A stretch of DNA of 61,731 nucleotides, filler included, from Hausera hauseri (GCA_046269625.1; 11 parts of 11 records of this genome joined end to end with filler, not necessarily neighbours in it); one strand, 5' to 3'. Positions 770-61,145 are shown, counted from the first letter of the whole stretch. Made by a program: numbers and translations. Notes: generated by a model from the letters alone, not told the origin.

Positions 770-3230
770 TGCCTTTGGAAGATCTGGGAGGCGCTGCGGA
801 GTCCAAAAGGTATAAAAAGTATTCGAAAAGGCCGAAAGGTGTAATGACGGCCATTTTCGGAATGTCTGCTGGGGCCACCGAAATTTTTTTAATATGCTTT
901 GTGAAAATCAATACAGGAAAATATGGTCGACCTATAAACCCTGTGAAGGATATCGTTGATTAATGGTAGAGGGTAGATATTCATTGTTGTTATGGTGTTA
1001 AGTTGGAGGTAATCACCGCATGGGCGAAAGGTGCCATCTTTTTTGGAACCACATGTTACTATGTGATGGAAGGTGGATTGACGTGGTACGAATAATTTGT
1101 CCTTCTGCAACAGACGCGTGCAGGAAGACAAAATGTATTGCTGTAGATCCGAAGGCAAGAATAAAAAGTTATCTGATGGTGTAGATGCATCGTGACTGGA
1201 TGCAGTTGAGGTGTGAGTTATATATAAGGTATTGTGACTGGGTGGTATTTGGTGCAGGATGTTCGTGCTGAAGATGGTGTTGGCAGCTGCGCCATTAGTA
1301 ATAGGTGTCATGCAGTTGGCAATATCGTATTTGTCACCGTAGTAAAAATTTCTGTATAATGTATGATTATAAAAGTAATTTAAATCGGAAGTCGTTTGCT
1401 TCAGTAATGACTTGTTGGAAGCGATCGCCGGGGTGGTCATCGAAATGCTGCTAATTTGATTAAGATTATTTTCGCACTTTAAGGAACATAGCTTGCAATC
1501 TACAAGTGCACTGGCTACTGTAAATTTCCATGTGAATGTGTTTGTGAAGTGTGGAAGAGTGAATATTAATGTGGTAACTCCAAAAATTTGTAAAGGCTAA
1601 CCGGACGCAGTGAACAGTTGCTTTTTGAGGTGAAATTGTTTTGGATGTGCTGTGTTGGTGGTAGTAGAGAGATTGCTGCGCCGGTGTCTATAAAAAGTTA
1701 ATGTTTTGCTTTGTTGGAGTGACGACTGTTGCTTTCAACGTGAATACAGCAAAAGAAATGTGTCGGCTATCTTTTTACAGGTTGTTGCCTTTGCTAGGAC
1801 TTGCCGTGTGTTTTAGCGGCGAAATCAGTTTTTTGGAGCTGGTGAGTTTGGCCTACTGTGCTGTGTAATTTTAGTAGTGTTGATTTTATTGTGTGTTTTG
1901 TAGTTACAGCCGGGTAGGCATTTTTGTGCTTTTGTGCCAAATTTTGAGTGGTAGGTACAAACGAAGTTGCTTGTATTAAAATCATGGGAATAAAATTTAC
2001 AACCGATGCAGCATTTTTCAGCATTGTTACCAAATTTGCTATGATAATAGCAAATAGATGACCGCGTGGACGACGGCGACCGTCTTTGACGTTGATTAAA
2101 TACATTAGGTAAAGCAGGCCTAGAAAAACCCCGTCGAGGCAACGTTAATTCATTTAATTTTTTGTTTATGGTGTTGATTGTCTTTTGTAACATTTCATTT
2201 TTTATGCGTAATTGCGCAATTTGTTGCTGCAGCATTGCACTTTGTTGTTGTTGGTCTGTTCTTAATGCCGCAGAGATAGTTGGTGCTGTGTGTGAGTGCA
2301 GTACTTCATATGCTTTATCTGCCAGTTCGGCTAGCTTGTTCAGAGCCGTGGAGTCTTAGACCACGGTAAGCAAAGCTCTTATTTGAAGGGGTAATGCATT
2401 TAAAATATAACGACGAATGACTTCTGGACTATGTTCAGATGTTACACCAAGGGTGTTGAGGTGAGACAAGGATGTGCATAAGAATTCAGAAAGATTTTCA
2501 ATGCCCATGGCGTTATCACTGAAGAATCTTTGAATGATGGAGTTGATTGACGTCTCAGTAAGCTTCAGAATGGCATTATAAAGTTGAGTATGTGTCAGGG
2601 TGCTAAAGGATATCGATGATATTGGTAATTTTAGTTTTGATGGAAGCTAATAAGCAGAAAAACAGGCTGTTGGTTTTGGATAAAGAATCGACGTTTTGCG
2701 ATTGAAGGCAAAATTGGTGCAGTTTTAGCCAAATTTGAGTAGAGTTTTGGCTGTCGAGGAAGTATTTGGTGCAGGATGAATGAGTGAGGAACGTGTGTTG
2801 TGTAGAGATGTTGGAAGCGCTGTGTTTGGGTAAATGAATGATGGGGATCTGTGGTTTGGTGAGTTTGTCCGTGGTATCAGTTATGGGTGACGAATCCATG
2901 CCACTACGGATACGGAAGTGAATGTGAAGACAGATAAGGGTTGAGGAAGATTGTAGAGTTCCAGCGAGAGGTACTAGATATCTATTGTGTGTGAGTAGAA
3001 ATCAGAAAACTGGAGTAAGGTAGAGATGAAGTTGTGAATGGCCGAAGTGTGTAAATGTAATGCTGTGTGCCTATGGACATGTTTATTATATAAAAAAAGA
3101 TGGAGTAGGGAGAAGTGGTGCGCCTGGAAGCATGTAGTGGGGCGGCAGCGAAAGGTGCCGTCTGACCTACCGGTGCAGGGTGGGCGGCCGGGACCTCAGC
3201 CTCGCCGCGACAGGTCCCAAATTTCGGGGT
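770..3230 (-). mobile_element. Decayed Ty3/Gypsy LTR retrotransposon, copy A (gag, protease, partial RT)
   Basis: Gag-like ORFs 2603-2899 and 1825-2235 with two C-x2-H-x9-C knuckles (CYYHSKFGNNAEKC, CTYHSKFGTKAQKC). Protease FIDTGAAISLLP at about 1660-1700. RT KKDGTFRPCGDY..LN..YPLP..DFHKAY in ORF 889-1440. Multiple stops and frameshifts. Colinear with the copy at 31980-34630. Confidence 0.92.
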
Positions 3231-31979: not shown

Positions 31980-34630
31980 CCTGTGAAGGATATCGTTGAC
32001 TAATGGTAGAGGGTAGGCATCCATTGTTGTTATGGTGTTGAGTTGGCGGTAATCACCGCATGGGCGAAAGATGCCATCTTTTTTTGGAACCACATGCAGT
32101 GGTGAAGACCAGGGGGATTTGGATCTTCTGATTATGCCTGATTTTTCAAGGTCGAGAAACTCAGCTTCCACTGCCTGTCTGCGACGAGGCGATAGCGAAC
32201 AAACCTTTTGACGTATTGGTCTCTGACGTGCTATTACTATGTGATGAAAGGTGGATTAAGGTAGTACAAATGATTTGTCCTTTTGCAACAGACGCGTGCA
32301 GAAGGACAAAATGTATTGTTGTAAATCAGAAGGCAAAGATGACAAGTTATCAGATGGTATCAATGCATCGTGACTGGATGCAGTTGAGGTATGAGTTATA
32401 AATGAGGTGTTGTGACTGGGTGGTATTTGGTGCAGGATGTTCGTCTTGAAGATGGTGTTGGCAGCTGTGTTATTAAAAATAGGTGCCACGCAGTTTTCAA
32501 TATCGCATTTGTCACCGTATTAAAAATTTTTATATAATGAATGATTATAAAAATAATTCAAATCGGAAGTCGTTTTCTTTGGTATCGACGTACTGGACGC
32601 GATCGCCGGGGTGGTCATCGAAATGCTACTGATTTGATTAATATTATTTCCGCTTTTTAATGAACATTGTTTGCAATCTACAAGTAAATTGTATTGGGAC
32701 AGAAAGTCTGAACCCCATACAGGTGTGTGTACATTGGCTACTGTAAATTTCCATGTGAATGTGTTTGTGAAGTGTGGAAGAGTGAATTTTAATTTGGTAA
32801 CTCCAAAAATTTGTAAAGGTTCACCGGAGGCAGTGAACAGTTGCTTTTGCGAAGTGTAATTGTGTTGTATGAGCTGTGTTGGTGGCAGTAGAGAGATTGC
32901 TGCGCCGGTGTCTATAAGAAAGTTTATTTTTTGTATTGTTGGATTGATGACTGCTGCTTCTAACGTGAATACAGCAAAAGAAATGTGTCGCCTGTGTTTT
33001 TGCAGGTTGTTGACTTTGCTAGGACTTGCCGTGTGTCCTAACGGCGAAATTAGTTTTTTGGAGTTGGTGAATTTGGCCTACTGTATTGTGTGAACTTATT
33101 AGTGTTGGTCTTATTGTGTGTGCTGTAGGTGCAACCAGGCAGGAATTTTTGTGCTTTTGTGCCAAATGTTGAGTGGTAGATGCAATCCATGTTGCCTGTA
33201 TTAAAACCAGGAGAATAAAATTTACAACCGACGCAGCATTTCTGAGCATTTTTGCAAAATTTGCTATGATGATAGCAAATTAATGACCGCGCTGGCGAAG
33301 GCTACCGTTTTTGACGTTGATTAAACACATTAGGGGAAGCAGGCCTAGAAAAACCCCGTCTAGGTAGTGTTAATGCGTTTAGTTTGTCGTTAATATTGTT
33401 GATTGTTTTTTGTAATGCTTCATTTTCTGTGCGAAATTGCACAATTTGTTGCTGCAACATTGCATTTTGTTATCGTTGATCTTTTGTCAATGCTGCAGAG
33501 ATAGTTGGTACTGCATGTGAATGCATTACTTCGTATGCCTTGTCTGTCAGTTCGGCTAGCTTGTCAAGTGCCATGGAGTCTTCAACCACAGTTAGCAAAG
33601 CTCTATTTGAAGGGGCAATGCGTTTAAGAAATAGCGACGAAGAAGCACGGGATTGTATTCAGAGGTTACGCCAAGGGTGTTGAGGTGAGACAAGGATGTG
33701 CGTAGGAATTCAGCAGGCTTTTGATGACCCATGGCGTTGTCATTAAAGAACCTTTGAATGATTGAATCGATTGAAGGCTCAGTAAGCTTGAGGACTGCAT
33801 TATAAAGTTGTGTATATGGGTAAGCATGTTGAAATATATCGATTATATTGGTGATTTTAGTTTTCATGGAAGCTGGTAAATGGAAGAAGAGGCTGTTGGC
33901 TTTGGCTAAAGAGTCGACGACATTTTGCGATTGGAGCCAAAATTAGTGCAGTTTTAGCCAAGTTTGAGTAGAGTTTTGGCTGTCGAGAAGATATTCTGTG
34001 CAGGGTGAATGCACAAGGAGGGTGTGTTGTGTTAAAGTGTTTAAAATGCTTTGTTTGGATAAATTTATGATGGGGATCTGCGGCGTGGTAAGTTTCTCAG
34101 TGGTGTCAAATGCGGTTGACGAGTCCATGCCACCACGGATACGGAAATAAATGTGAAGACAGATGCGGGTTGAGGACGATTGTAGTGTTCCAGCGAGGGG
34201 TACTAGAGATCCATTGTATGTGAGGTAGAAATCAGAGGAGTGGAGTAATGTCGAGATAAAGGTGTAAATGGCTGCAGTATGTAAGTGTAATGCTGTGTGT
34301 ATGGATATGTTTGTTAGAACCAGACTGACTAGTTGGGTAATCCGGAAGGCTTGAGGTATAGATAAGAAAGGTGTATATAGTATATATAGAGGTATGTGTG
34401 TAAGAGTGCGTGTGTTTATGTACAGAACGGAGTGAGTAAATGATGACGTTGTATATAGGTATATTGTACATATATTTTTATGTTTATCATGTGAATTTTG
34501 TGTGGAATGAAAATTGTTTGTAGAAAACTTGCGTGCTTGATGATGTAAAATAGGTATGGGAATCCAATATAATGTGTTGTAATTGCTGTAAATAAATAGC
34601 CCGGGTCGACATTCGGGGAATCAGAAGACG
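31980..34630 (-). mobile_element. Decayed Ty3/Gypsy element, copy B (same family as 770-3230)
   Basis: Colinear nucleotide similarity to copy A. Gag MDSS..., protease FLIDTGAAISLLP, RT start SGIIRRSKSPWSSPLHVVPKKDGIFRPCGDYRQLN. Confidence 0.93.
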
Positions 34631-50143: not shown

Positions 50144-51275
50144 ATCTAATGATTCTGAAGTTCAAAAATTCATGGAAGAGTTTGAATCAGTAAAGCAAAT
50201 TTATTGTAAAGATGACATTTTAATACTGATGAAACAAGCTTATTCATCAAATCCCCAAATAACATATCTTATATCCAAAAAATGACAGATTGAATATGAA
50301 GGGAATTTCTCAAATCTAGACTAGAATGACAATTTTATTGACTGTAAATGTAAATGGCGATTTTTTAAATACATTAATAGTTGGAACATCAAAAAGTCCC
50401 AGGGCGCTGAAAAACAAGTCTTTGGAATCGATGAACATTTGCTATACGGCAAATAAATCTGCCTGGATCACAAAGGAAAACTTTTTTTCATATTTTCAAA
50501 ACATTAATGAACAAATGAAACAATCAGGGAGAAAAATATGCATCATTTTAGACAATTTTTCAGGACATAAAATTAGTGATTTCACACATGTTAGATTTCT
50601 ATTTTTACCTGAAATTCAACTAATCTTTTACAACCTCTTGATATGGGAATTATTAAGTCATTTAAGGATAAATATTATAATTTTCTTAAAACGGATTTAT
50701 TAAATAGGCAAGGACTTTTGGATATGAATTATTCTAGTTTAATTAGGAAAATAAATATTTATGAGGTTATTATATGGGTATCTCAATCAATCAGACAAAT
50801 TTCACCAGACACAGTTTACAATTGTTGGGTTAAAGCCAAGTTAGTGGATGGGGACAAAATAATGGAAAGTATTAATGAAGACTTACAAAATGGAGAAGAG
50901 GAATCAATTTCTAATGAGATAGAAGAAGTACAAGGAGAAGAACAAGAAGTACAAGGAGAAGAACAAGAGGAGGTACAAGGAGATCAAATTATTGAATTAG
51001 AAGAAATAAAAACTGAACACAAAGATGCAATAATGAAATTAAATGAGCTTGAGGCTATATTACTAGAACATGATCATGATTCTTATGCAGAACTGATAAA
51101 TCTCAAGCAACGAGTAATTTCTAGATTTTTATCTAAGCAAAAAAGAACACTTTGTACAGATTTTTTATTCCAAAATAAATGTATAGTTTTGTGTTGGTTT
51201 TGTAAAATTTTATCGCACCTTTAAGAGTTATCGCACCTTTTGTTAAAAAAGGTGCGATAAGTTCGCATCCCACTG
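50144..51275 (+). mobile_element. pogo/Tigger DNA transposon 3' half (DDE_1), decayed
   Basis: NTDET, RMTILL..N..G, Y.ANKSAWIT, IILDNFSGH, QPLDMGIIKSFK, TV.NCW.KA. Right terminus ..GTTCGCATCCCACTG + TA at 51275 with TATCGCACC subterminal repeats. Internal 21-bp EVQGEEQ repeat at about 50920-50985. Confidence 0.9.
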
Positions 51276-51678
51276 TATTGAATATTGGTTTCCAATCCTG
51301 GGGGGGGCTTTGTACCAATGTGCTCACATCTATCTACTCTCTGATCGCAACATTTTCAAATTTTAAAATTTTAGCAGGTGTGTACTTTTTGTACCGCTAT
51401 GTAAAATTCCATTGAATTCCAATTTTCGGACAGAAATTTGAATTTATCTACTCGGGAAAACCCATAAAATTATCAGAATAATTTTTCTATACTTTTGTTT
51501 TATTCAATAAAAGTAATGTTCATAAATTCTGTGAAACTGATATATTGTCGATAAATTGCTCCGATTATCATTCAAAAGTTAAAACCCAATCTAAAAAAAT
51601 GTTACCATTTCACAATTATTGGTCAATCATCAACCAATGAATTTCAAGTAACAATATAGATTTTCAAATGTTTTACAG

Positions 51679-51910
51679 ACTTCAAAATGTCATTCTAACA
51701 GTCAACCGATGGAACAATTGAGTCATGATGCTTACCCCATATGTGTAGCGTGTCAAGAACTGATAACATATTCTCATTTGTTGAAAGTAGATAACAGTTA
51801 TTGGTATGAGGACTGCCTTCGGTGTAGTTGCTGCAGTTGTCGACTCGATGAAGTCGGATCAACTCTACATACAAGAGCGAATTTACTATTTTCTAAACGT
51901 GATTATCTAG
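51679..51910 (+). CDS. LIM-domain-only (LMO/rhombotin-like) exon with substituted zinc ligands
   Basis: CVACQELI..HLLKV...WYEDCLRCSCCSCRLDEVGSTLHTRANLLFSKRDYL ~ LMO1/3 LIM1. Acceptor ttttacag| and donor AG|gtatgt. Confidence 0.8.
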
Positions 51911-53273
51911 GTATGTTGCGTCCATTTTTAATTGACAATCTCTGCCTTTTATTCTACGTTAATATTAATAATTATTTATTTATCAAATTTATCGTATTAA
52001 ATGGACAATGGATGTTGTCGATTAATAATTTAAATGATAATTTCTTTCGCATTTAATTTGGTCAGTGTCAATTGTTCGATGTCTATATATAGTAACAACT
52101 TTCATTACTTATGAAATTTTGAAATGAATTTAAGACTTCGCAATTTAAAGTGAAGTATTTTGAAGATTTGACAAAGAATTCACGCAGTTTAGTGTATATT
52201 TTTATATAATGAACAACGAGGAGTGACAAAAATATGTTGTATGACTCATTTTGTTGTATTAGTCATGGAACTTATTCACTTTACCTCCCATATAAATATT
52301 TAAATCTTTAGTATGTTTTCTTCAATTTTTCCATCTGCTATTTAGTCATTAATCCGGAGTAGTTGTTCCATCGGATTTAGAAATATTTACACCATTCACC
52401 GAACATTCTCTCCGGTGAACATTAGGTGAATATAACAGGCTTCATAAAACTACAATGTTAATTAAATGTTAATTTAACTTACATTATTTAGATAATATAT
52501 AAATGAGGGTTCAAAAAATTCTAAATGAAATTATAATGCGAAGTCAAATTGCCCAAAGCGGCATCAAATAGACAGCTCTACACTATACAGTTTCTGGGGT
52601 GTTGTTTTTCGAGACTAGATTGAATAGTCATGTTTAAATCCTGTCTAATCCGGAAACTCAAGCAACGCAACTTTACAAAAATTATGGACCAAATTAATGT
52701 TTCGATTCATAAAAAATGTTTACACAATATAAACCATACAAGGATTTAAAACCATGTTGGCTCAATTTGCATCAAAGGCGCCCATGTGAAGCAAACGCGC
52801 AAATATCTTTGTCTTTACGCTTCACTGGTCCATAAGGAGTTAAATAGGTTTATAACAAATAGCCAGAGGTGCAAAATACAATTCTGATTAATAATATGAA
52901 AAAATGTCCGAGAAAGCCCAAATAACACATTTGGAGCTTTTAAATATAACAGCATTTCGCACTTGTTCAAATCTTCCCCACTGTGTTTAGAAATTTTGAA
53001 CTTTTACAAAATTTTCGTTCCATTTCTCGTGCTCATGTTATTTTAAAATTCAAATTAGAATGTTTTTTTGATGTTCTGTCAATATAAAATGTATTGGATT
53101 CATTCACAATAGCATATTCTCTTGAGTATAAATTTTGGCTATCACATGACTGAAGACAGACTATATTCGTAATAAGTCGAATATATATATATCTGCACGT
53201 CTCTCACTATTTGTTATAAAAACTTAGGTTTACGGTAAAATTCGTTTCCTTCTTAGATAGGTTATCAGTAATA

Positions 53274-54843: not shown

Positions 54844-55053
54844 TTTGTGGGCTGTACTCACTATCGTGGGCCCGTCGAGCGGGTGGTACTTACCTTTGCG
54901 GGTGGTACTTATCTTTGTGGGCGGTACTTACTTTCGTGGGCGTGTCCAGCGGGTGGTACTCACCTTTGTGGGCGGTACTTACCTTCATGGGCGTGTCCAG
55001 CGGGTGGTACTTACCATTGTGGGCGGTACTTACCTTCGTGGGCGTGTCTAGTG
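54844..55053. repeat. Minisatellite (about 19/32-bp subunits, about 51-bp higher-order unit) with 8 GTACT(T/C)AC(C)-type cores
   Basis: GGGCGGTACTTACCTTTGT and GGGCGTGTCCAGCGGGTGGTACTTACC units. Confidence 0.9.
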
Positions 55054-55600
55054 GGTCCACCAGTCCACAGGGAAGTCTCTTTGGAGCAGGGAAGTATTTC
55101 TTTAAATTGAGGTAAGTGTTTAAGGTCAGTACCTCACCTCAGACCCGGAGATTAATTGTTTGCAGGGGTTAACTTTAGAGTTTAGGGGTCATGTGGGCAA
55201 ATTATCGATCCGTTTTTTCTTTTAAATTAGTATGGGGCGTCAAATTCTGGGGTTATTTTTTTGGAAAATGTGGTCGGGGGGGACGATGGATGGCCGTAAC
55301 ACATCACAGGGTTAATATGAGGCGATTCCTCCCTGGGGTTAATGTCAGGGTTGGCAGTCAGGGTGGGGGTTAAAATTTGACCCAAAGGGGTTAATATGAG
55401 GTAATAATATAATAATATAATAATATAATCAGGTTAATATTAGGTATAGATAATGACCATGAACATAGTGCAGGTTATAATAAGTGATTATATTAGTAGT
55501 GAAGACAGCCATAATATCAACAATATAATAATAAGTTAATAACAGTACCATCCATAGATTTTATTTCAGTATTTATTTATTTATTTATTTACTTATTTAT

Positions 55601-57817
55601 TTATTTTTCATTTAACCCCTTAGGTGTCACTGTGTCCAGTTTGGAGATCCAAAGTCTCTCAGCTCTCCTCCTCTGGGCGAGTGACCAGGTGGGATCACAT
55701 TCTAAGATGGTGGCTTTTACAGATTCCCACCCATGAAGAATAAAATGCTGGACCAGAGGTGTGTGTGTCTCTTTCTTTTTATTAATGTTATGTCTGTGTT
55801 GTGTAAATCTCGTCAGCAGTGTGTTCCCAGTCTCTCCCACATATTGGGCTCCACACTGCTGACATGAGATAAGATACACACAGTTTCTTGTCCGGGAGCA
55901 CCCCCTGCTGGCCGTTTTGAAAATTGTTTTATTATATTTGTTTTGGACCCATCTCAGTTGTTTGAAGAATTCCTGCTGACCTTTGACCTTCGGCGTGGTG
56001 AGCGGCTTTAACTTGGCATGTACCAAGTAATCCTTCAGATTTTTATTCCTTCTATATGCCCCAATGATTCTATGATCCAATAGGAGTTGGCTTTCTTTTT
56101 GGAATTTTTCAAAATTAATTTTAATGTTTTTAACTAATTTCATGGCAGATGGAGAATAATTAGTTACAAAAGGGATAATGGCCTCCACAGCAGTTGGTTT
56201 GGTCAGCAGGAATGTCTTCAAACACTTTCTCAGGAAGGACCTCGAGTATCCTCTCCCGGACAGAGCTGAAAACAACACTTTAGTTGCAGTTTTAAAATCT
56301 GACTGCTGTGTGCAAATTCTGTGAAATCTTAACAATTGGGATTTGATAAGTCCTGCATAGGTGTGCTTGGGGTGAAAACTACTTTTGTATAATAGGGCAT
56401 GTGTGTCTGTGTCCTTAAAGAAGACTTTAACGTCCAGGACGTGTGTGTCTTTAAAATTTGGGCCTTTGAATGTGGTGGTGTCCAGAAAATCTACAGATGT
56501 GAGGTGTGTGGTGGCTTTAAGTTTAATGGATGGGTTGTGTGTGTTCAGTGAGTCCAGGAAAGTCTCGAAGTCCCTCTCTGAGTGGGTCCACACACCCCAG
56601 ATGTCATCCAGATACCTATAATAGAAAAGAGGTTTTTTCTCACACCTCTCAAGGGCTGACTCCTCCCACAAAGCCATAAAGATGTTGGCATAGCCAGGTG
56701 CAAACTTTTTACCCATGGCAGTTCCCTTTATTTGTAAGAAATATTCATTATTAAATTCAAAGTCATTTTTTGTCAAATTAATTTCTAATAGTTGGATTAG
56801 CTCCTTCTCAGGTCTCGAACTGCATGGATATTTTCTAAATATGGTTTTCACTGCCTCAATTCCTTCATTTATAGGGATATTAGTGTACAGGCTCTCGACA
56901 TCCATTGTGAAGAGGATCGCATCGTCAGGTAAGTGGATATTTTTTATTTTATTTACAAAATCATATGTATCTTTAATATAACTATTGTGTTTTATAGATA
57001 GAGGAGTTAAATAATAATCAATAAATTCAGCTGTATAATAGGTTTCACTCCCACAATCTGAGACGATGGGCCTCCCACTGGGCACTTCAAAGGGTCGAGA
57101 CCAAGTACTGGGTTCCTTATGGATTTTAGGCAGTAAATAAAACCTTCTGGCTCTGGGCTCCTCAGAGCCAATTAAGTACTTTCGCTGTTTAGCATTGATA
57201 AACTTTTTAATATATAAGTTATTAATAATTTTAGTGATAAGGGGTATAGTTTCTATATAGATAGGTTTGGTTAGTTTAGAATAATAGTGAGTATTATTAA
57301 GTTGTTTATATCCTTCATATAAATATTGATCTCTATCCATAATTACTATAGCGCTCCCCTTATCTGCAGGTTTAATAATAATGTTTCTATTGTTTAATAG
57401 TTCTTTAAGAGCCAAGGTTTCTTCTTTATTTAGATTAGGTTTATTTTTATATAATTTAAAGTTTTTTTGAAAATAATCCATGTCATTTTTTATTAGGGTG
57501 GAGACCTGAGGAGGGAGTCTGACCAACGCTGGTTCCCAGCTGGATTTGGGAGTAAAAGGAGGTATGTCTGTGTTGTTATCATCTTTATAATAAACTGCTA
57601 GTTTGATTCTTTTATGGTATTGTTGTATATCATATTTATTTTGTGCTAGAATGTTATTATTATTATTCCCTGTAGAGGGGACAAAGGTTAAGCCTTTATT
57701 TAGTAAGGTTAACTGTGCACTTGTTAGTTTGAAAGTTTTAGACAGATTAATGACATTTTTATTCCCCTCCTGTGAGGACAGGCTTGTGGGGAAATCTATT
57801 TTAAATGCTGCATCCAA
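55601..57817 (-). CDS. PLE reverse transcriptase + C-terminal GIY-YIG endonuclease (ORF2; listed start is TTG, probably expressed by -1 frameshift)
   Basis: VINLS..L...LL.KGLTF.P, IIKPADKG, FYLLPKIHK, GRPIVS, MDVESLYTNIP, GTAMG..FAP.YANIFM, YLDD, DFLD, AYRRNKNLKDYLV, CVYLISCQQCGAQYVGETG..L..RF..H...H...H, E..WI..L....P.GLN. 738 aa without interruption. Confidence 0.96.
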   Translation of the reverse strand: MDAAFKIDFPTSLSSQEGNKNVINLSKTFKLTSAQLTLLNKGLTFVPSTGNNNNNILAQNKYDIQQYHKRIKLAVYYKDDNNTDIPPFTPKSSWEPALVRLPPQVSTLIKNDMDYFQKNFKLYKNKPNLNKEETLALKELLNNRNIIIKPADKGSAIVIMDRDQYLYEGYKQLNNTHYYSKLTKPIYIETIPLITKIINNLYIKKFINAKQRKYLIGSEEPRARRFYLLPKIHKEPSTWSRPFEVPSGRPIVSDCGSETYYTAEFIDYYLTPLSIKHNSYIKDTYDFVNKIKNIHLPDDAILFTMDVESLYTNIPINEGIEAVKTIFRKYPCSSRPEKELIQLLEINLTKNDFEFNNEYFLQIKGTAMGKKFAPGYANIFMALWEESALERCEKKPLFYYRYLDDIWGVWTHSERDFETFLDSLNTHNPSIKLKATTHLTSVDFLDTTTFKGPNFKDTHVLDVKVFFKDTDTHALLYKSSFHPKHTYAGLIKSQLLRFHRICTQQSDFKTATKVLFSALSGRGYSRSFLRKCLKTFLLTKPTAVEAIIPFVTNYSPSAMKLVKNIKINFEKFQKESQLLLDHRIIGAYRRNKNLKDYLVHAKLKPLTTPKVKGQQEFFKQLRWVQNKYNKTIFKTASRGCSRTRNCVYLISCQQCGAQYVGETGNTLLTRFTQHRHNINKKKETHTPLVQHFILHGWESVKATILECDPTWSLAQRRRAERLWISKLDTVTPKGLNEK
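57762..57805 (-). promoter_or_regulatory. Predicted -1 programmed ribosomal frameshift signal
   Basis: Slippery U_UUA_AAA (57805-57799) in the ORF1 frame just before its UAG, 5-nt spacer UAGAU, then hairpin UUCCCC-ACAAG-CCUGU-CCUC-ACAGG-A-GGGGAA. The -1 frame is ORF2. Confidence 0.75.
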
Positions 57818-59931
57818 TGCTCAAACATGCAAATAGCTGTACCTTTGGACCAGTGAATGAGATCTTTCTCAGTTCTAAAGCTCTCTTGTAGAAGAGGGAT
57901 GTGGTGATCATACCCCTGGATTGTAGAGTTGAGTCTCTCCAGGAGGTCCTGATCCCTGCGAGGGAGGGAGGTGGAGAAGTTCACCTGAGGGATGAAGATC
58001 TGTGCTGCTGGTAGTTTCCTCATCGCCGTGGCAACAGCCTCCTCCATCTCCGCGACCACAGCCTGGAGGCTCCTCTGTGACCTGTCGTTGAGGCCGAAGG
58101 AAAGGACCAGCTTCTCCACCTCGCAGTCCACCTCGACCGTCCGCAGCAGGTGGGTGGCGTGCTCCCATTTGGCTCCTGCGAAGCTCTCCACCTGGAGGTC
58201 GGATCCATCGTAGGTGGGAAAGCGTGCCAGGTTGGAGTCTCCCACGATGACGTGTTTCTTGTTGATGTGCAATTTCCACTCCAGTTTCTTGTCAAACCTG
58301 GCGATGTGCTTGATGGGCCTAGTCATCCAGGGTGAGGAGGTTTCAGCCTGTGGTCCTGATGCTGCGGCCCCCGGTCTGGGCCTGATGAGTGGGCTCCCCG
58401 TCAAGGTCGTTTGGATGCAGGAGCGCCGCAGACGTCCCATCGGCTCCTCCAGTGGTGGGGTGTTGAAGGTGTAGTCCCCCAGATCTATGAGGTCCAGGTC
58501 CTCCTGGTCCTCCTCCTCTGCTGCCGACAGTCCATGATGCTGGGGGGTGGACGTGGTTGGAGAAGGAGATGTGGAGATGGCGGTCAGCTCACCTTGTGGC
58601 GTTCTCTGAGGTAAGGGAAGAGGCGGGGTCTGCTTTTCCTGTGGGGTCTCCGGTGTGATGAGGGGCCCCCCTTGTGAGGAGGATTGTGTGGAGTCCCCGA
58701 AGGCTGTTGTCCCCACTCTATCAGGCGACCAGTCACTCCTTTGGGGGTCAGTCATTGTCGCCATGTCCAGCAGGAGGCGAGCTGGAGTCCTGATGAAGGG
58801 GATGACAGGTGAGAGCTGTACAGGATTCTGCTCACCTGGTCCAGCTGTTGGTGAAGGGCTGGATGTAGGCTGGTTTTGTGCAGGAGAAGGAGAGGGGGAT
58901 GATGAGGATGATGAAGATGATGATGATGAGGAAGAGGAGGAGGCAGGATCAGTCCTCCTGTCTGGCCCACCTGGCGATGCTGGTGTTGGTGCAGGGGGGG
59001 AGGAGGAGGGTGGTGGAGAGGAAGGCCCCGTCCCCCTGGGTGGCTCATCTCCTGCAGGGGTTGTGGTCTCAGGGCCAGACCTCAGGAGCCTCTCCACTTC
59101 ATTTAGGGTCTCCTGCTTGAGACGCCTGCCCAGGTTCCTTCTGGCCCACTTGGTGGCAATTTGGAGAGGGCCTTCCAGGTCCACAAAGGCATAAAGTGAC
59201 AGGTCACTTAGTTCCTTGCAGATGGCCTGGTCGTAGTGTCCCTGCAGGATCTGCATGGTTGTGTGGGCCCAGTTGTGTGCATTTAATTCAATAAGGGACA
59301 GGGTGTTGTGGGTGGGGTTAGCAGGTTTAATTACAGAGGTCAGCTGGTCTTGGATCCTCTGCACAGCTGGTGGAAACTCACTCTTTGCCACGTTTGCAGA
59401 GTGATGAACAGCTTTGATCAGTCTGTGGATTGATCTGATCTTGTCTGTGAAGTGTGGATCATCACTCTGGATCGGCTGTGAGCGCTGGGTGGGGGGGCGG
59501 GGGGGGCGGGGTCTGTTGCGGGGTACATACCGCTGTTGTTGTCGGAATCTTGGCTGCCCGCTGCGGTTTCTGAGGGGCCTCTGTCCCCGGTTGCGGCTAG
59601 GATCAAGGCGCCGCTGATCAAAGGGGCCGCGGCTCCAGAAGCCGCCACGATCGACGTCATCCGGGGATCTCCAGCGGTTTCCCCGTTGCTGGTATCGGCG
59701 TGTGCTGCCGCGCCGGTCGCGCTGATCTCGGCCCCTCCGCGGGTAGCTGTGGTCCGGTCTGCCCCTCACCACCTCCGCGTAGGTCCGCTGTCTCGGCCGC
59801 GGCTCGGCTCGGCGCGGCTGTTCCCAGTGGCGTGGATTGGAGCTCCGGTTCCGGAAGCGTGGACGTCCTGCGTTGGGGTTGCTACGCAACCCGACTCGGG
59901 TCCAGCTGGGAGAACGGTCCCTCCACGGCAT
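57796..59931 (-). CDS. PLE ORF1: Arg-rich N-terminus, helical domain, Pro/Ser-rich linker, C-terminal SGNH/GDSL hydrolase
   Basis: 711-aa ATG-initiated ORF. SGNH blocks: I VIVGDSNL, II FAGAK, III SFGLND, V DLIHW (Ser-Gly-Asn-His plus Asp all present). Confidence 0.85.
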   Translation of the reverse strand: MPWRDRSPSWTRVGLRSNPNAGRPRFRNRSSNPRHWEQPRRAEPRPRQRTYAEVVRGRPDHSYPRRGRDQRDRRGSTRRYQQRGNRWRSPDDVDRGGFWSRGPFDQRRLDPSRNRGQRPLRNRSGQPRFRQQQRYVPRNRPRPPRPPTQRSQPIQSDDPHFTDKIRSIHRLIKAVHHSANVAKSEFPPAVQRIQDQLTSVIKPANPTHNTLSLIELNAHNWAHTTMQILQGHYDQAICKELSDLSLYAFVDLEGPLQIATKWARRNLGRRLKQETLNEVERLLRSGPETTTPAGDEPPRGTGPSSPPPSSSPPAPTPASPGGPDRRTDPASSSSSSSSSSSSSSSPSPSPAQNQPTSSPSPTAGPGEQNPVQLSPVIPFIRTPARLLLDMATMTDPQRSDWSPDRVGTTAFGDSTQSSSQGGPLITPETPQEKQTPPLPLPQRTPQGELTAISTSPSPTTSTPQHHGLSAAEEEDQEDLDLIDLGDYTFNTPPLEEPMGRLRRSCIQTTLTGSPLIRPRPGAAASGPQAETSSPWMTRPIKHIARFDKKLEWKLHINKKHVIVGDSNLARFPTYDGSDLQVESFAGAKWEHATHLLRTVEVDCEVEKLVLSFGLNDRSQRSLQAVVAEMEEAVATAMRKLPAAQIFIPQVNFSTSLPRRDQDLLERLNSTIQGYDHHIPLLQESFRTEKDLIHWSKGTAICMFEHWMQHLK

Positions 59932-60136
59932 GTTGGTTCCGGGTTTTGATTTAAAATATTTATAAAAAAAATGTTTTAAAAGTTATAAAAAAAATGTGAA
60001 AAAGGACTGGATTTTTTTCTTAATTAAAAGGTGGTTTAGTTTGTGAAAAAAGAGGCTTTGAATTTTGCGAACTCGCACTTTAATAAACGATTTTTTTCAA
60101 AAAAAATGGAACAATAAAAGTACAAAAATACAAAAA

Positions 60137-60195
60137 CAAGCTTTTCGCAACGTTTCGGTTATATTAAACCTTCTTCAGGCAAATGAAAAAGCTTG
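60137..60195 (-). ncRNA. Minimal type I hammerhead ribozyme motif (PLE-type)
   Basis: CAAGCUUUUUCAUUUGC-CUGAAGA-A-GGUU(UAAUAU)AACC-GAAAC-GUU-GCGAAAAGCUUG. Conserved CUGANGA/GAAA cores, stem II GGUU/AACC, palindromic AACGUU stem III and an extended stem I. Confidence 0.8.
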
Positions 60196-61145
60196 ATAAA
60201 TCAGGTAAATACCTTCAAAGTCCACCAAGAGTCCATCAGACGGTGTACAGGCAGTGAACAAGCGGTTACAAGCAACAAGCAGTTTTAAATTCGCCGCTGA
60301 TTGCCGGCGTCCGACGTAACCAGTCCCAGCCAATCATGTGGGCCGAACTCTGTACATTTAAATTCCATTGGCTCCACAGTGGCAAACAAAGTTTTTTTTC
60401 CTTCAACAACAACTCAAATTTGAACTTAAAAAGAACTCCGTACAGTATCCATGGTAACAAGAAAAAACAAAATGCAGAAACGAATCTTAACATCCGGTTG
60501 GACTCAAATAAAACAGGAAGTGGTTTCAAAATAAAAGCACAATATTTACAATTTGCAGTTTCTATACAGAACATTTGAAAAGGTTACAGAACATTGTAAG
60601 AACCATAATAGAACATGAAAAAATATATTTTACTTCCTGATTAGGTTTATAAAAAAAAAAAAAAAATAAAAAAGTATTTACATAATTCTTTTTCACCCTT
60701 TTAAAGAAAGATATGTATAATATTTATTTAGGTGCACAGTTTAGTTGTAGTTTTTGTTGTTTTTAGTATATTTATTCATTTAGATATTTGGAAACCAGCA
60801 ATATTTGATATTAGGATATTCTTATAAATTATTTAATTTGAATTAATTTTGTTCTATTTGTTGTTCAATTTACAGGGAGGAGGAGTCAGGTTTTCTCAAC
60901 TTCCAGGTATCTTTCAGACATCTTTCAAATACTCAAGGATCCACCAACAATATTTTCCAGGTAAGTCATGTTTAATTCTGTTTTACCTTTTCTCTCAGAT
61001 GGACCCTGAAGGGCTGATGGGAGCAACTGGAGGCCGAGACAGGAGGCACGGGCTGGATTAGGATTAGGGAAGGAGGAAGTTCCGGCGCCGCAGGCGTCGG
61101 AACTTCTGTGCACAGTCCATCACTGCCTCAGTCCTCACCGCCGCC

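Follow-up and report, generated by a model that had tools for sequence, protein, structure and literature searches.

Predicted programmed −1 ribosomal frameshifting between ORF1 and the reverse transcriptase of an endonuclease-bearing Penelope-like element in Hausera hauseri

The window analysed here, a 61,731-nucleotide (nt) stretch of Hausera hauseri DNA composed of 11 joined parts, carries a minus-strand Penelope-like retroelement (PLE) on its last scaffold piece (54844-61731). The element is an intact PLE copy in which both open reading frames (ORFs) are open. ORF2 encodes a reverse transcriptase (RT) followed in a single frame by a GIY-YIG endonuclease at the C terminus, the feature of endonuclease-bearing (EN+) PLEs. 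Pfam identifies the GIY-YIG domain (E 4.9e-10) and places RVT_1 just under the cut-off (E 9.9e-7), a CCHH motif is visible in the ORF2 translation as CxxC plus two histidines, and the nearest named RT proteins are from teleost fish. ORF1 is composed of an arginine-rich N terminus, an all-helical domain, a low-complexity linker rich in proline and serine, and a C-terminal esterase, in that order. Based on the order of its catalytic blocks the C-terminal domain is classed as an SGNH hydrolase. Its profile matches the esterase of ZfL2-1 ORF1 (4c1b, E 6.7e-9), and Pfam Lipase_GDSL_2 gives only E 0.008, which is below the cut-off.

The junction between the two ORFs (Table 1) is as a preliminary description of this DNA had reported. 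ORF1 ends CAU UUA AAA UAG, and ORF2, in the −1 frame relative to ORF1, is closed upstream by a UGA, giving an overlap of 25 nt, stop counted. The in-phase heptamer U_UUA_AAA, the 5-nt spacer and the two-stem hairpin are all present in this short region. The first AUG in ORF2 is codon 114 (57481-57479), rather than about codon 113 as first stated, and is located 3′ of conserved N-terminal motifs, leaving 113 codons that lack an AUG. The predicted fusion of ORF1 and ORF2 comprises 714 + 732 = 1,446 amino acids (aa), in agreement with the ∼1,440 aa proposed earlier for an RT/endonuclease made as an ORF1 fusion. From these features and those of related loci, we consider it very likely that programmed −1 frameshifting at the junction makes the RT-endonuclease as an extension of ORF1, and we infer that the RT is expressed only as this fusion, at a fixed low ratio to ORF1. 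Taken by itself the single site in the window goes only modestly beyond chance, and it is the comparative evidence that is decisive.

Table 1. Coordinates of the junction and of other features of the H. hauseri Penelope-like element, numbered from the first nucleotide of the window
Feature	Position	Strand	Details
UGA closing the ORF2 frame 5′ of the overlap	57821-57823	minus	
UUG in the ORF2 frame	57815-57817	minus	conserved ORF1 Trp codon in the −1 frame; usual gene-caller ORF2 start
Slippery heptamer U_UUA_AAA	57799-57805	minus	in phase with ORF1, inside the −1 overlap
Spacer UAGAU	57794-57798	minus	5 nt; contains the ORF1 stop UAG (57798-57796)
Two-stem hairpin with internal loop	57762-57793	minus	UUCCCC/GGGGAA and CCUGU/ACAGG; predicted frameshift stimulator
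ORF1	57796-59940	minus	AUG at 59940, UAG at 57798-57796; 714 aa
SGNH/GDSL esterase domain	57799-58350	minus	GDS, G, N and DxxH blocks in order; its end is the slippery site
Five-helix ORF1 domain	59056-59478	minus	conserved, with HH, P and H unchanged in all 17 sequences aligned; model pLDDT (predicted local distance difference test) 93
ORF2	55601-57820	minus	739 codons from stop to stop; carries the PLE N-terminal motifs, the RT and the GIY-YIG endonuclease
3′ untranslated part	55054-55600	minus	second copy upstream; terminates in a 51-bp tandem array (54898-55056) plus an N gap
Upstream tandem copy, 3′ end	61146-61731	minus	includes the last ORF2 codons; pseudo-LTR (long terminal repeat) arrangement
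Minimal hammerhead-ribozyme-like motif	60143-60178	minus	CUGAAGA, stem II, GAAA, palindromic AACGUU

An alignment of 36 RT proteins was used to fetch 88 related loci, 76 from metagenomes and 12 from prokaryote assemblies. Eight loci that lack an N-terminal RT anchor (L031, L035, L053, L081, L083, L085, L087 and L088) and eight in which the open RT frame is preceded by <150 nt (L023, L033, L036, L044, L076, L082, L084 and L086) were left out of the counts. Each of the 72 testable loci has an ORF of ≥100 codons whose end overlaps the beginning of the RT frame in a −1 relation. Clustering at 70% RT identity gave 38 families including the window. A slippery heptamer is found in the last seven ORF1 codon positions in 36 of the 38 families (28 canonical, 8 variant), compared with a background of 81 in 17,229 ORF1-body positions, or ∼3% expected per locus. 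At the aligned site itself the motif is U_UUA_AAC in 23 families, another canonical heptamer in 3, a variant in 9 and non-canonical in 3, and the ORF1 stop lies directly 3′ of the heptamer in 22. The −1 frameshift reading is thus strongly supported by a frame offset, a heptamer and a position that are conserved over 38 non-redundant families. No relatives were found among viral contigs.

The conservation of the heptamer is not explained by constraint on the protein, since both codon choice and residue replacement follow the slippery motif. Leucine at the site is encoded by UUA in 30 of 32 cases versus 198 of 1,378 (14%) in ORF1 bodies. Moreover, in five families the residue pair has been replaced (by Asp-Phe, Asp-Leu, Pro-Phe, Phe-Phe or Glu-Asn) and a slippery motif is kept (G_GAU_UUU, G_GAU_UUA, C_CCU_UUU, U_UUU_UUC and G_GAA_AAC, respectively).

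Copies of the element in public sequencing data bear on whether the offset is genuine. Twenty-four runs, coded as 24 organisms, contain 29-93% of the sampled words, and seven of these were examined at the junction. No RNA data set appears among the sources listed, which has no bearing on expression. Contigs cross it without insertion or deletion in all seven. They are identical to the window in X1, X2, X7 and X12, any one of which, though not all, may be the source of the window, and show two to three differences in X3 and X4. A subfamily that is ∼85% identical, also with a gap-free junction, is present in X2, X4, X7, X12 and X17. Among the changes listed for it, the heptamer and stop are spared, and those near the junction affect positions 5′ of the heptamer, the internal loop (57786) and the outermost base of the stem (57793); a copy at this level of identity has CUG in place of the UUG in the ORF2 frame (change at 57817), and one additional contig has UAA in place of UAG (57796). 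The assembly in the window is fragmented and rich in decayed elements, a setting in which such an offset might come from faulty sequencing or from a single-ORF element that is dead and has a one-base lesion, and the preliminary description had itself raised the prospect of family copies with both ORFs in one frame and an indel here. No such copy was encountered. The gap-free or identical junctions in seven of seven runs, the offset shared by all 72 relatives and the intact state of both ORFs refute an error or lesion, to which we assign practically no probability. Proteins longer than 1,294 aa provide weak evidence in the same direction, with 3 matches among 813 candidates and no clean ORF1-RT fusion.

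Two other routes to RT expression were weighed against frameshifting. Termination-reinitiation or internal initiation could yield ORF2 as a protein of its own, starting either at the UUG 15 nt 5′ of the heptamer or at the AUG of codon 114. Some long interspersed nuclear elements (LINEs) translate ORF2 by reinitiation, the window overlap carries, in the ORF2 frame, a UUG with G as the next base, and in 30 of the 38 database proteins that reach the junction the called start is exactly four codons before F/V-K-L. However, 30 of 30 of those called starts have D, G, E, V or A, which are specified by G-starting codons, as residue 2, as expected if the apparent start is the conserved ORF1 tryptophan codon read in the −1 frame. 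In 18 of the 38 families the overlap contains no AUG, CUG, GUG, UUG or ACG in the ORF2 frame, and in at least 27 the first AUG is >30 codons downstream at a very variable location. Furthermore, in 9 of the 38 a stop in the ORF2 frame lies between the position of the UUG and the heptamer, ending 3 nt 5′ of the latter, and the frame change must therefore occur at the heptamer. Reinitiation also leaves the conservation of an in-phase heptamer unexplained, and we regard a separate ORF2 protein as very improbable. A spliced RNA that fuses ORF1 to ORF2 in frame, or that supplies an upstream AUG to ORF2, would be compatible with the introns known in PLEs (as given in the available text of PMC4209133) and with an Esox lucius NCBI gene model (P0065, 1,283 aa) that unites an ORF1-like part with RT in a single protein, its junction being shorter by about two residues. 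That protein model may be an annotation patch over a frameshift. No strong donor hexamer is present within 250 nt 5′ of the junction, and the ten closest junctions align gap-free with no invariant GT or AG. The esterase is conserved through its last helix and the ORF2 motifs begin ∼15 codons further on, so that an intron would have little space. Splicing is accordingly a highly unlikely source of the fusion.

The structure 3′ of the heptamer is conserved over a narrower range than the heptamer. In the window, the hairpin is both the minimum-free-energy and the centroid structure of a 44-nt segment (−13.3 kcal/mol, z −2.30, equalled by 7 of 200 shuffles), and none of 20 ORF2 control windows is as stable as the segment following the heptamer. 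Across the families the mean folding energy of 45-nt windows reaches its minimum, −8.2 kcal/mol, right after the heptamer, compared with −4.9 kcal/mol just 5′ and −3.1 to −3.6 kcal/mol at 18-48 nt further 3′; GC-richer ORF1 windows further upstream give −6.4 to −7.3 kcal/mol. A nine-member clade that includes the window was recovered with a support of 97 on an RT tree built by a quick method with a midpoint root and no named reference elements. All nine members have CCCC exactly 8 nt past the heptamer, pairing with GGGG about 20-24 nt later, and seven of the nine have no equally stable window among 20 ORF2 controls. Double-sided changes occur in the inner stem among aligned junctions, and in three other families (L011, L015 and L019) the polarity of the stem is reversed, with the G-run first. 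A simple scan found no H-type pseudoknot in the window, bulged and long-range knots being outside its scope, and H-type candidates are not enriched among relatives (8 of 38 families versus 35% of control windows). The preliminary description had proposed heptamer conservation and hairpin covariation among copies as a check. The heptamer is conserved and the position of the hairpin is kept within the clade of the window, but the covariation is weak. We propose that the heptamer is the universal part of the signal and the hairpin, which is predicted only, a lineage-specific part.

A number of observations count against the frameshift proposal or against the hairpin as its stimulator, and are considered here together. 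The window ORF1 contains three further in-phase canonical heptamers in 728 codons, and U_UUA_AAA is a weaker slippery sequence than U_UUA_AAC. The families are related by descent and are not independent draws, so a binomial P value computed over them overstates their independence, and the variant class (GUU, GGA or GGU as XXX) was defined from viral examples. The three non-canonical sites read G_CUA_AAA, C_UUA_AAC and A_CUA_AAU. The first, which should prevent P-site re-pairing, is that of the closest relative (L001, 621-633), yet the stop, a tight 13-nt overlap and the hairpin are retained; this locus would be either a degenerate copy or a case of single-tRNA slippage. In locus L086 (49-1839) the RT frame is open for ∼207 codons 5′ of the usual start, with no esterase match and no heptamer. 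It may have a different layout and is possibly a single-ORF relative, so not all relatives may share the two-ORF layout. As for the hairpin, the folding z fades in longer segments (−1.2 at 69 nt, −0.7 at 99 nt and −0.6 at 131 nt), only 6 of the 38 families have z < −2 and 16 have z < −1, and a distant 12-member clade has little local structure 3′ of the heptamer. The covariation score is reached by 78 of 500 shuffles for all 10 aligned junctions and by 20 of 500 for the 7 gap-free junctions (L009, L010 and L078 left out), both of which are weak.

An alternative is that frameshifting is real but is driven by the slippery site with its adjacent stop, by a structure of longer range or by a protein acting in trans. 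In its favour, conservation of the heptamer far exceeds that of local structure, z being above −1 in 22 of the 38 families, the stop abuts the heptamer in 22, and covariation is weak. The fixed C-run and G-run positions in the clade of the window, the seven of nine members that exceed all of their control windows, the double-sided inner-stem changes and the reversed stem polarity elsewhere argue in favour of the hairpin, and we consider a stimulator other than the hairpin rather unlikely.

For programmed −1 frameshifting at the junction we envisage the following steps. Ribosomes would translate ORF1 from its AUG and would pause on UUA-AAA before the hairpin, which is predicted to fold 5 nt 3′ of the heptamer and to cause the pause, and before the adjacent stop. 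As in the viral −1 frameshifting model, the tRNA-Leu on UUA and the tRNA-Lys on AAA would then re-pair on UUU and AAA, respectively, and a minority of ribosomes would slip back by one base and pass the stop in the −1 frame to yield an ORF1-esterase-RT-endonuclease protein. Ribosomes that stay in frame would stop one codon later, setting free ORF1p. The entire ORF1p would be retained in the fusion, including the esterase, as a minor product that may, also by analogy with viruses, co-assemble with the excess ORF1p on the RNA of the element.

The helical part of ORF1 contains a conserved five-helix domain, and residues 155-295 were the part of ORF1 for which a model was built. The domain belongs to no Pfam family and has no clear counterpart among known structures. 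Its best VIA-align Z score, 8.2 (root mean square deviation 3.4, 90 residues), is to generic helical bundles, and a viral Foldseek search with it gave no match at E ≤ 0.001. A metal-binding or oligomerization role is possible. No Gag feature was detected in ORF1 by Pfam scan or, for residues 155-295 only, by fold comparison.

The scaffold piece that holds the element is bounded by N gaps and by the end of the window, and no junction between the PLE and other window DNA is visible. The 3′ end of the element is repeated upstream, the pair 55054-55668 and 61146-61731 having 91-99% identity at a spacing of about 6.07-6.09 kb, which indicates the partial-tandem pseudo-LTR layout of PLEs. The hammerhead-like motif is in the terminal repeat, about 200 nt 5′ of the ORF1 AUG. 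A loose hammerhead pattern is not enriched across the window (7 matches versus 5.2 expected), and the assignment relies on the full motif and its position; a stricter related pattern occurs at 5 of the 88 loci. Fish PLEs are reported to carry hammerhead motifs of this kind (available text of PMC4209133). Rfam gives no hammerhead match at the motif and no frameshift-element match at the ORF1/ORF2 junction, and a veev_FSE match on the plus strand at 61081-61113 was discarded because its E value of 0.77 does not reach the threshold.

Base composition changes sharply at the slip site, with a GC content of 0.59 in ORF1 (57796-59940) versus 0.37 in ORF2 (55601-57795). The remainder of the window is AT-rich (GC 0.36) with many decayed elements, and identical copies of the PLE junction are found at high depth in runs from several other organisms. 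The contrast between the PLE and the rest of the window would reflect either recent horizontal spread or DNA of another organism that was scaffolded in. The PLE loci L077-L088 are in assemblies labelled as bacterial (for example Candidatus Epulonipiscioides, Brevinema and Enterovibrio), and are probably animal DNA because PLEs are eukaryotic. Elsewhere in the window there is a decayed element with ORF fragments in two copies (940-3069 and 31980-34299; 81-94% alike and ∼31.2 kb apart), which we take from its motifs to be LTR-retrotransposon-like, together with a DDE_1 transposase broken over two frames and a LIM-domain fragment (50320-51224 and 51652-52056, both plus strand).

EN+ PLEs are usually described as single-ORF elements. 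If the −1 frameshift reading is correct, consensus annotations of, and biochemistry on, EN+ PLE RTs begin from the wrong protein, and retrovirus-style control of product ratio also extends to a retroelement that is target-primed and has an RT sister to that of telomerase. Both ORFs of this copy are intact, other organisms have near-identical copies, and the signal spans only about 45 nt, which makes it well suited to reporter assays, for which the relatives offer a natural series of slippery sites and stimulators. A broader proposal, which we advance tentatively and with some doubt, is that frameshifting on U_UUA_AAC is the ancestral, clade-wide mode of RT expression in esterase-bearing EN+ (Neptune-type) PLEs, in which the RT would be made only as an ORF1-esterase-RT-endonuclease fusion. 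The stimulator would have been rebuilt in each lineage, and the ‘single-ORF’ fish PLE proteins in databases would be mis-annotated at their N termini.

A frameshift following ORF1 was reportedly described in 2017, by Arkhipova and co-workers, for the endonuclease-less Athena elements. According to the Fig. 1 legend of Craig et al. 2021 (PMC8557442), a frameshift that comes with a pseudoknot can set ORF1 of PLEs apart, the preprint legend having ‘often separated’, and the abstract of the same paper presents canonical EN+ PLEs as single-ORF. The elements in that legend resemble the present one in that ORF1 lies upstream and is linked to RT through a frameshift, with an RNA structure after it. 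The legend names no clades. The window element is EN+ and its ORF1 ends in an esterase; in addition, the legend has a pseudoknot and the window a predicted hairpin. SGNH esterases are in print for Neptune1_Ren (Schneider et al. 2013, PMC3905857) and for Neptune-like PLEs of fish and mollusks (PMC5408684), as far as the available parts of these papers go. In those parts there is no mention of a PLE frameshift in PMC3905857, the sole ‘frameshift’ in PMC5408684 concerns LTR elements, and the available text of PMC6431247 and PMC3846280 holds nothing further on a PLE frameshift. No description of a slippery site in EN+ PLEs was found in the full-text literature, which for this purpose did not include Arkhipova 2006, Arkhipova et al. 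2017, Gladyshev and Arkhipova 2007 or Repbase reports. Since a frameshift after PLE ORF1 and Neptune esterases already appear in the accessible parts of this literature, the novelty here is limited. What is added is clade-wide comparative sequence evidence in endonuclease-bearing PLEs that is stronger than any found in print.

The window element shares with the Neptune-like PLEs, as far as the accessible descriptions show, a C-terminal GIY-YIG domain, the GDS/G/N/DxxH ORF1 esterase, a hammerhead in the terminal repeat and teleost relatives. Unlike Neptune, its ORF2 lacks the hallmark CX2-5CxxC between RT and EN, a linker that is present in 19 of the 38 families and in none of the 14-member clade that holds the window. 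From these sequence features the element is best called Neptune-like rather than filed as Neptune. Among viruses, −1 frameshifting is used in retroviral gag-pol and coronavirus ORF1a/1b expression, the coronavirus heptamer is U_UUA_AAC, and in Rous sarcoma virus the gag stop lies directly 3′ of the heptamer. The X_XXY_YYZ heptamer, the 5-nt spacer and the downstream structure are common to these systems and the PLE, as would be the polymerase made as a minor fusion. In contrast to viral gag-pol, the window element is target-primed and has no integrase, no protease by Pfam scan and no detectable Gag domains. The ‘retrovirus-style gag-pol expression’ of the preliminary description therefore holds as an analogy of expression logic and not for the make-up of ORF1, which has arginine-rich, helical and esterase parts instead of a detected Gag feature. 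The nearest structural relative of the ORF1 esterase is that of ZfL2-1, a CR1/L2 LINE (PDB 4C1B) with the same order of arginine-rich, helical and esterase parts, but ZfL2-1 has another class of RT, that of the apurinic-endonuclease LINEs, and its ORF1p is a separate protein (available text of PMC3905857).

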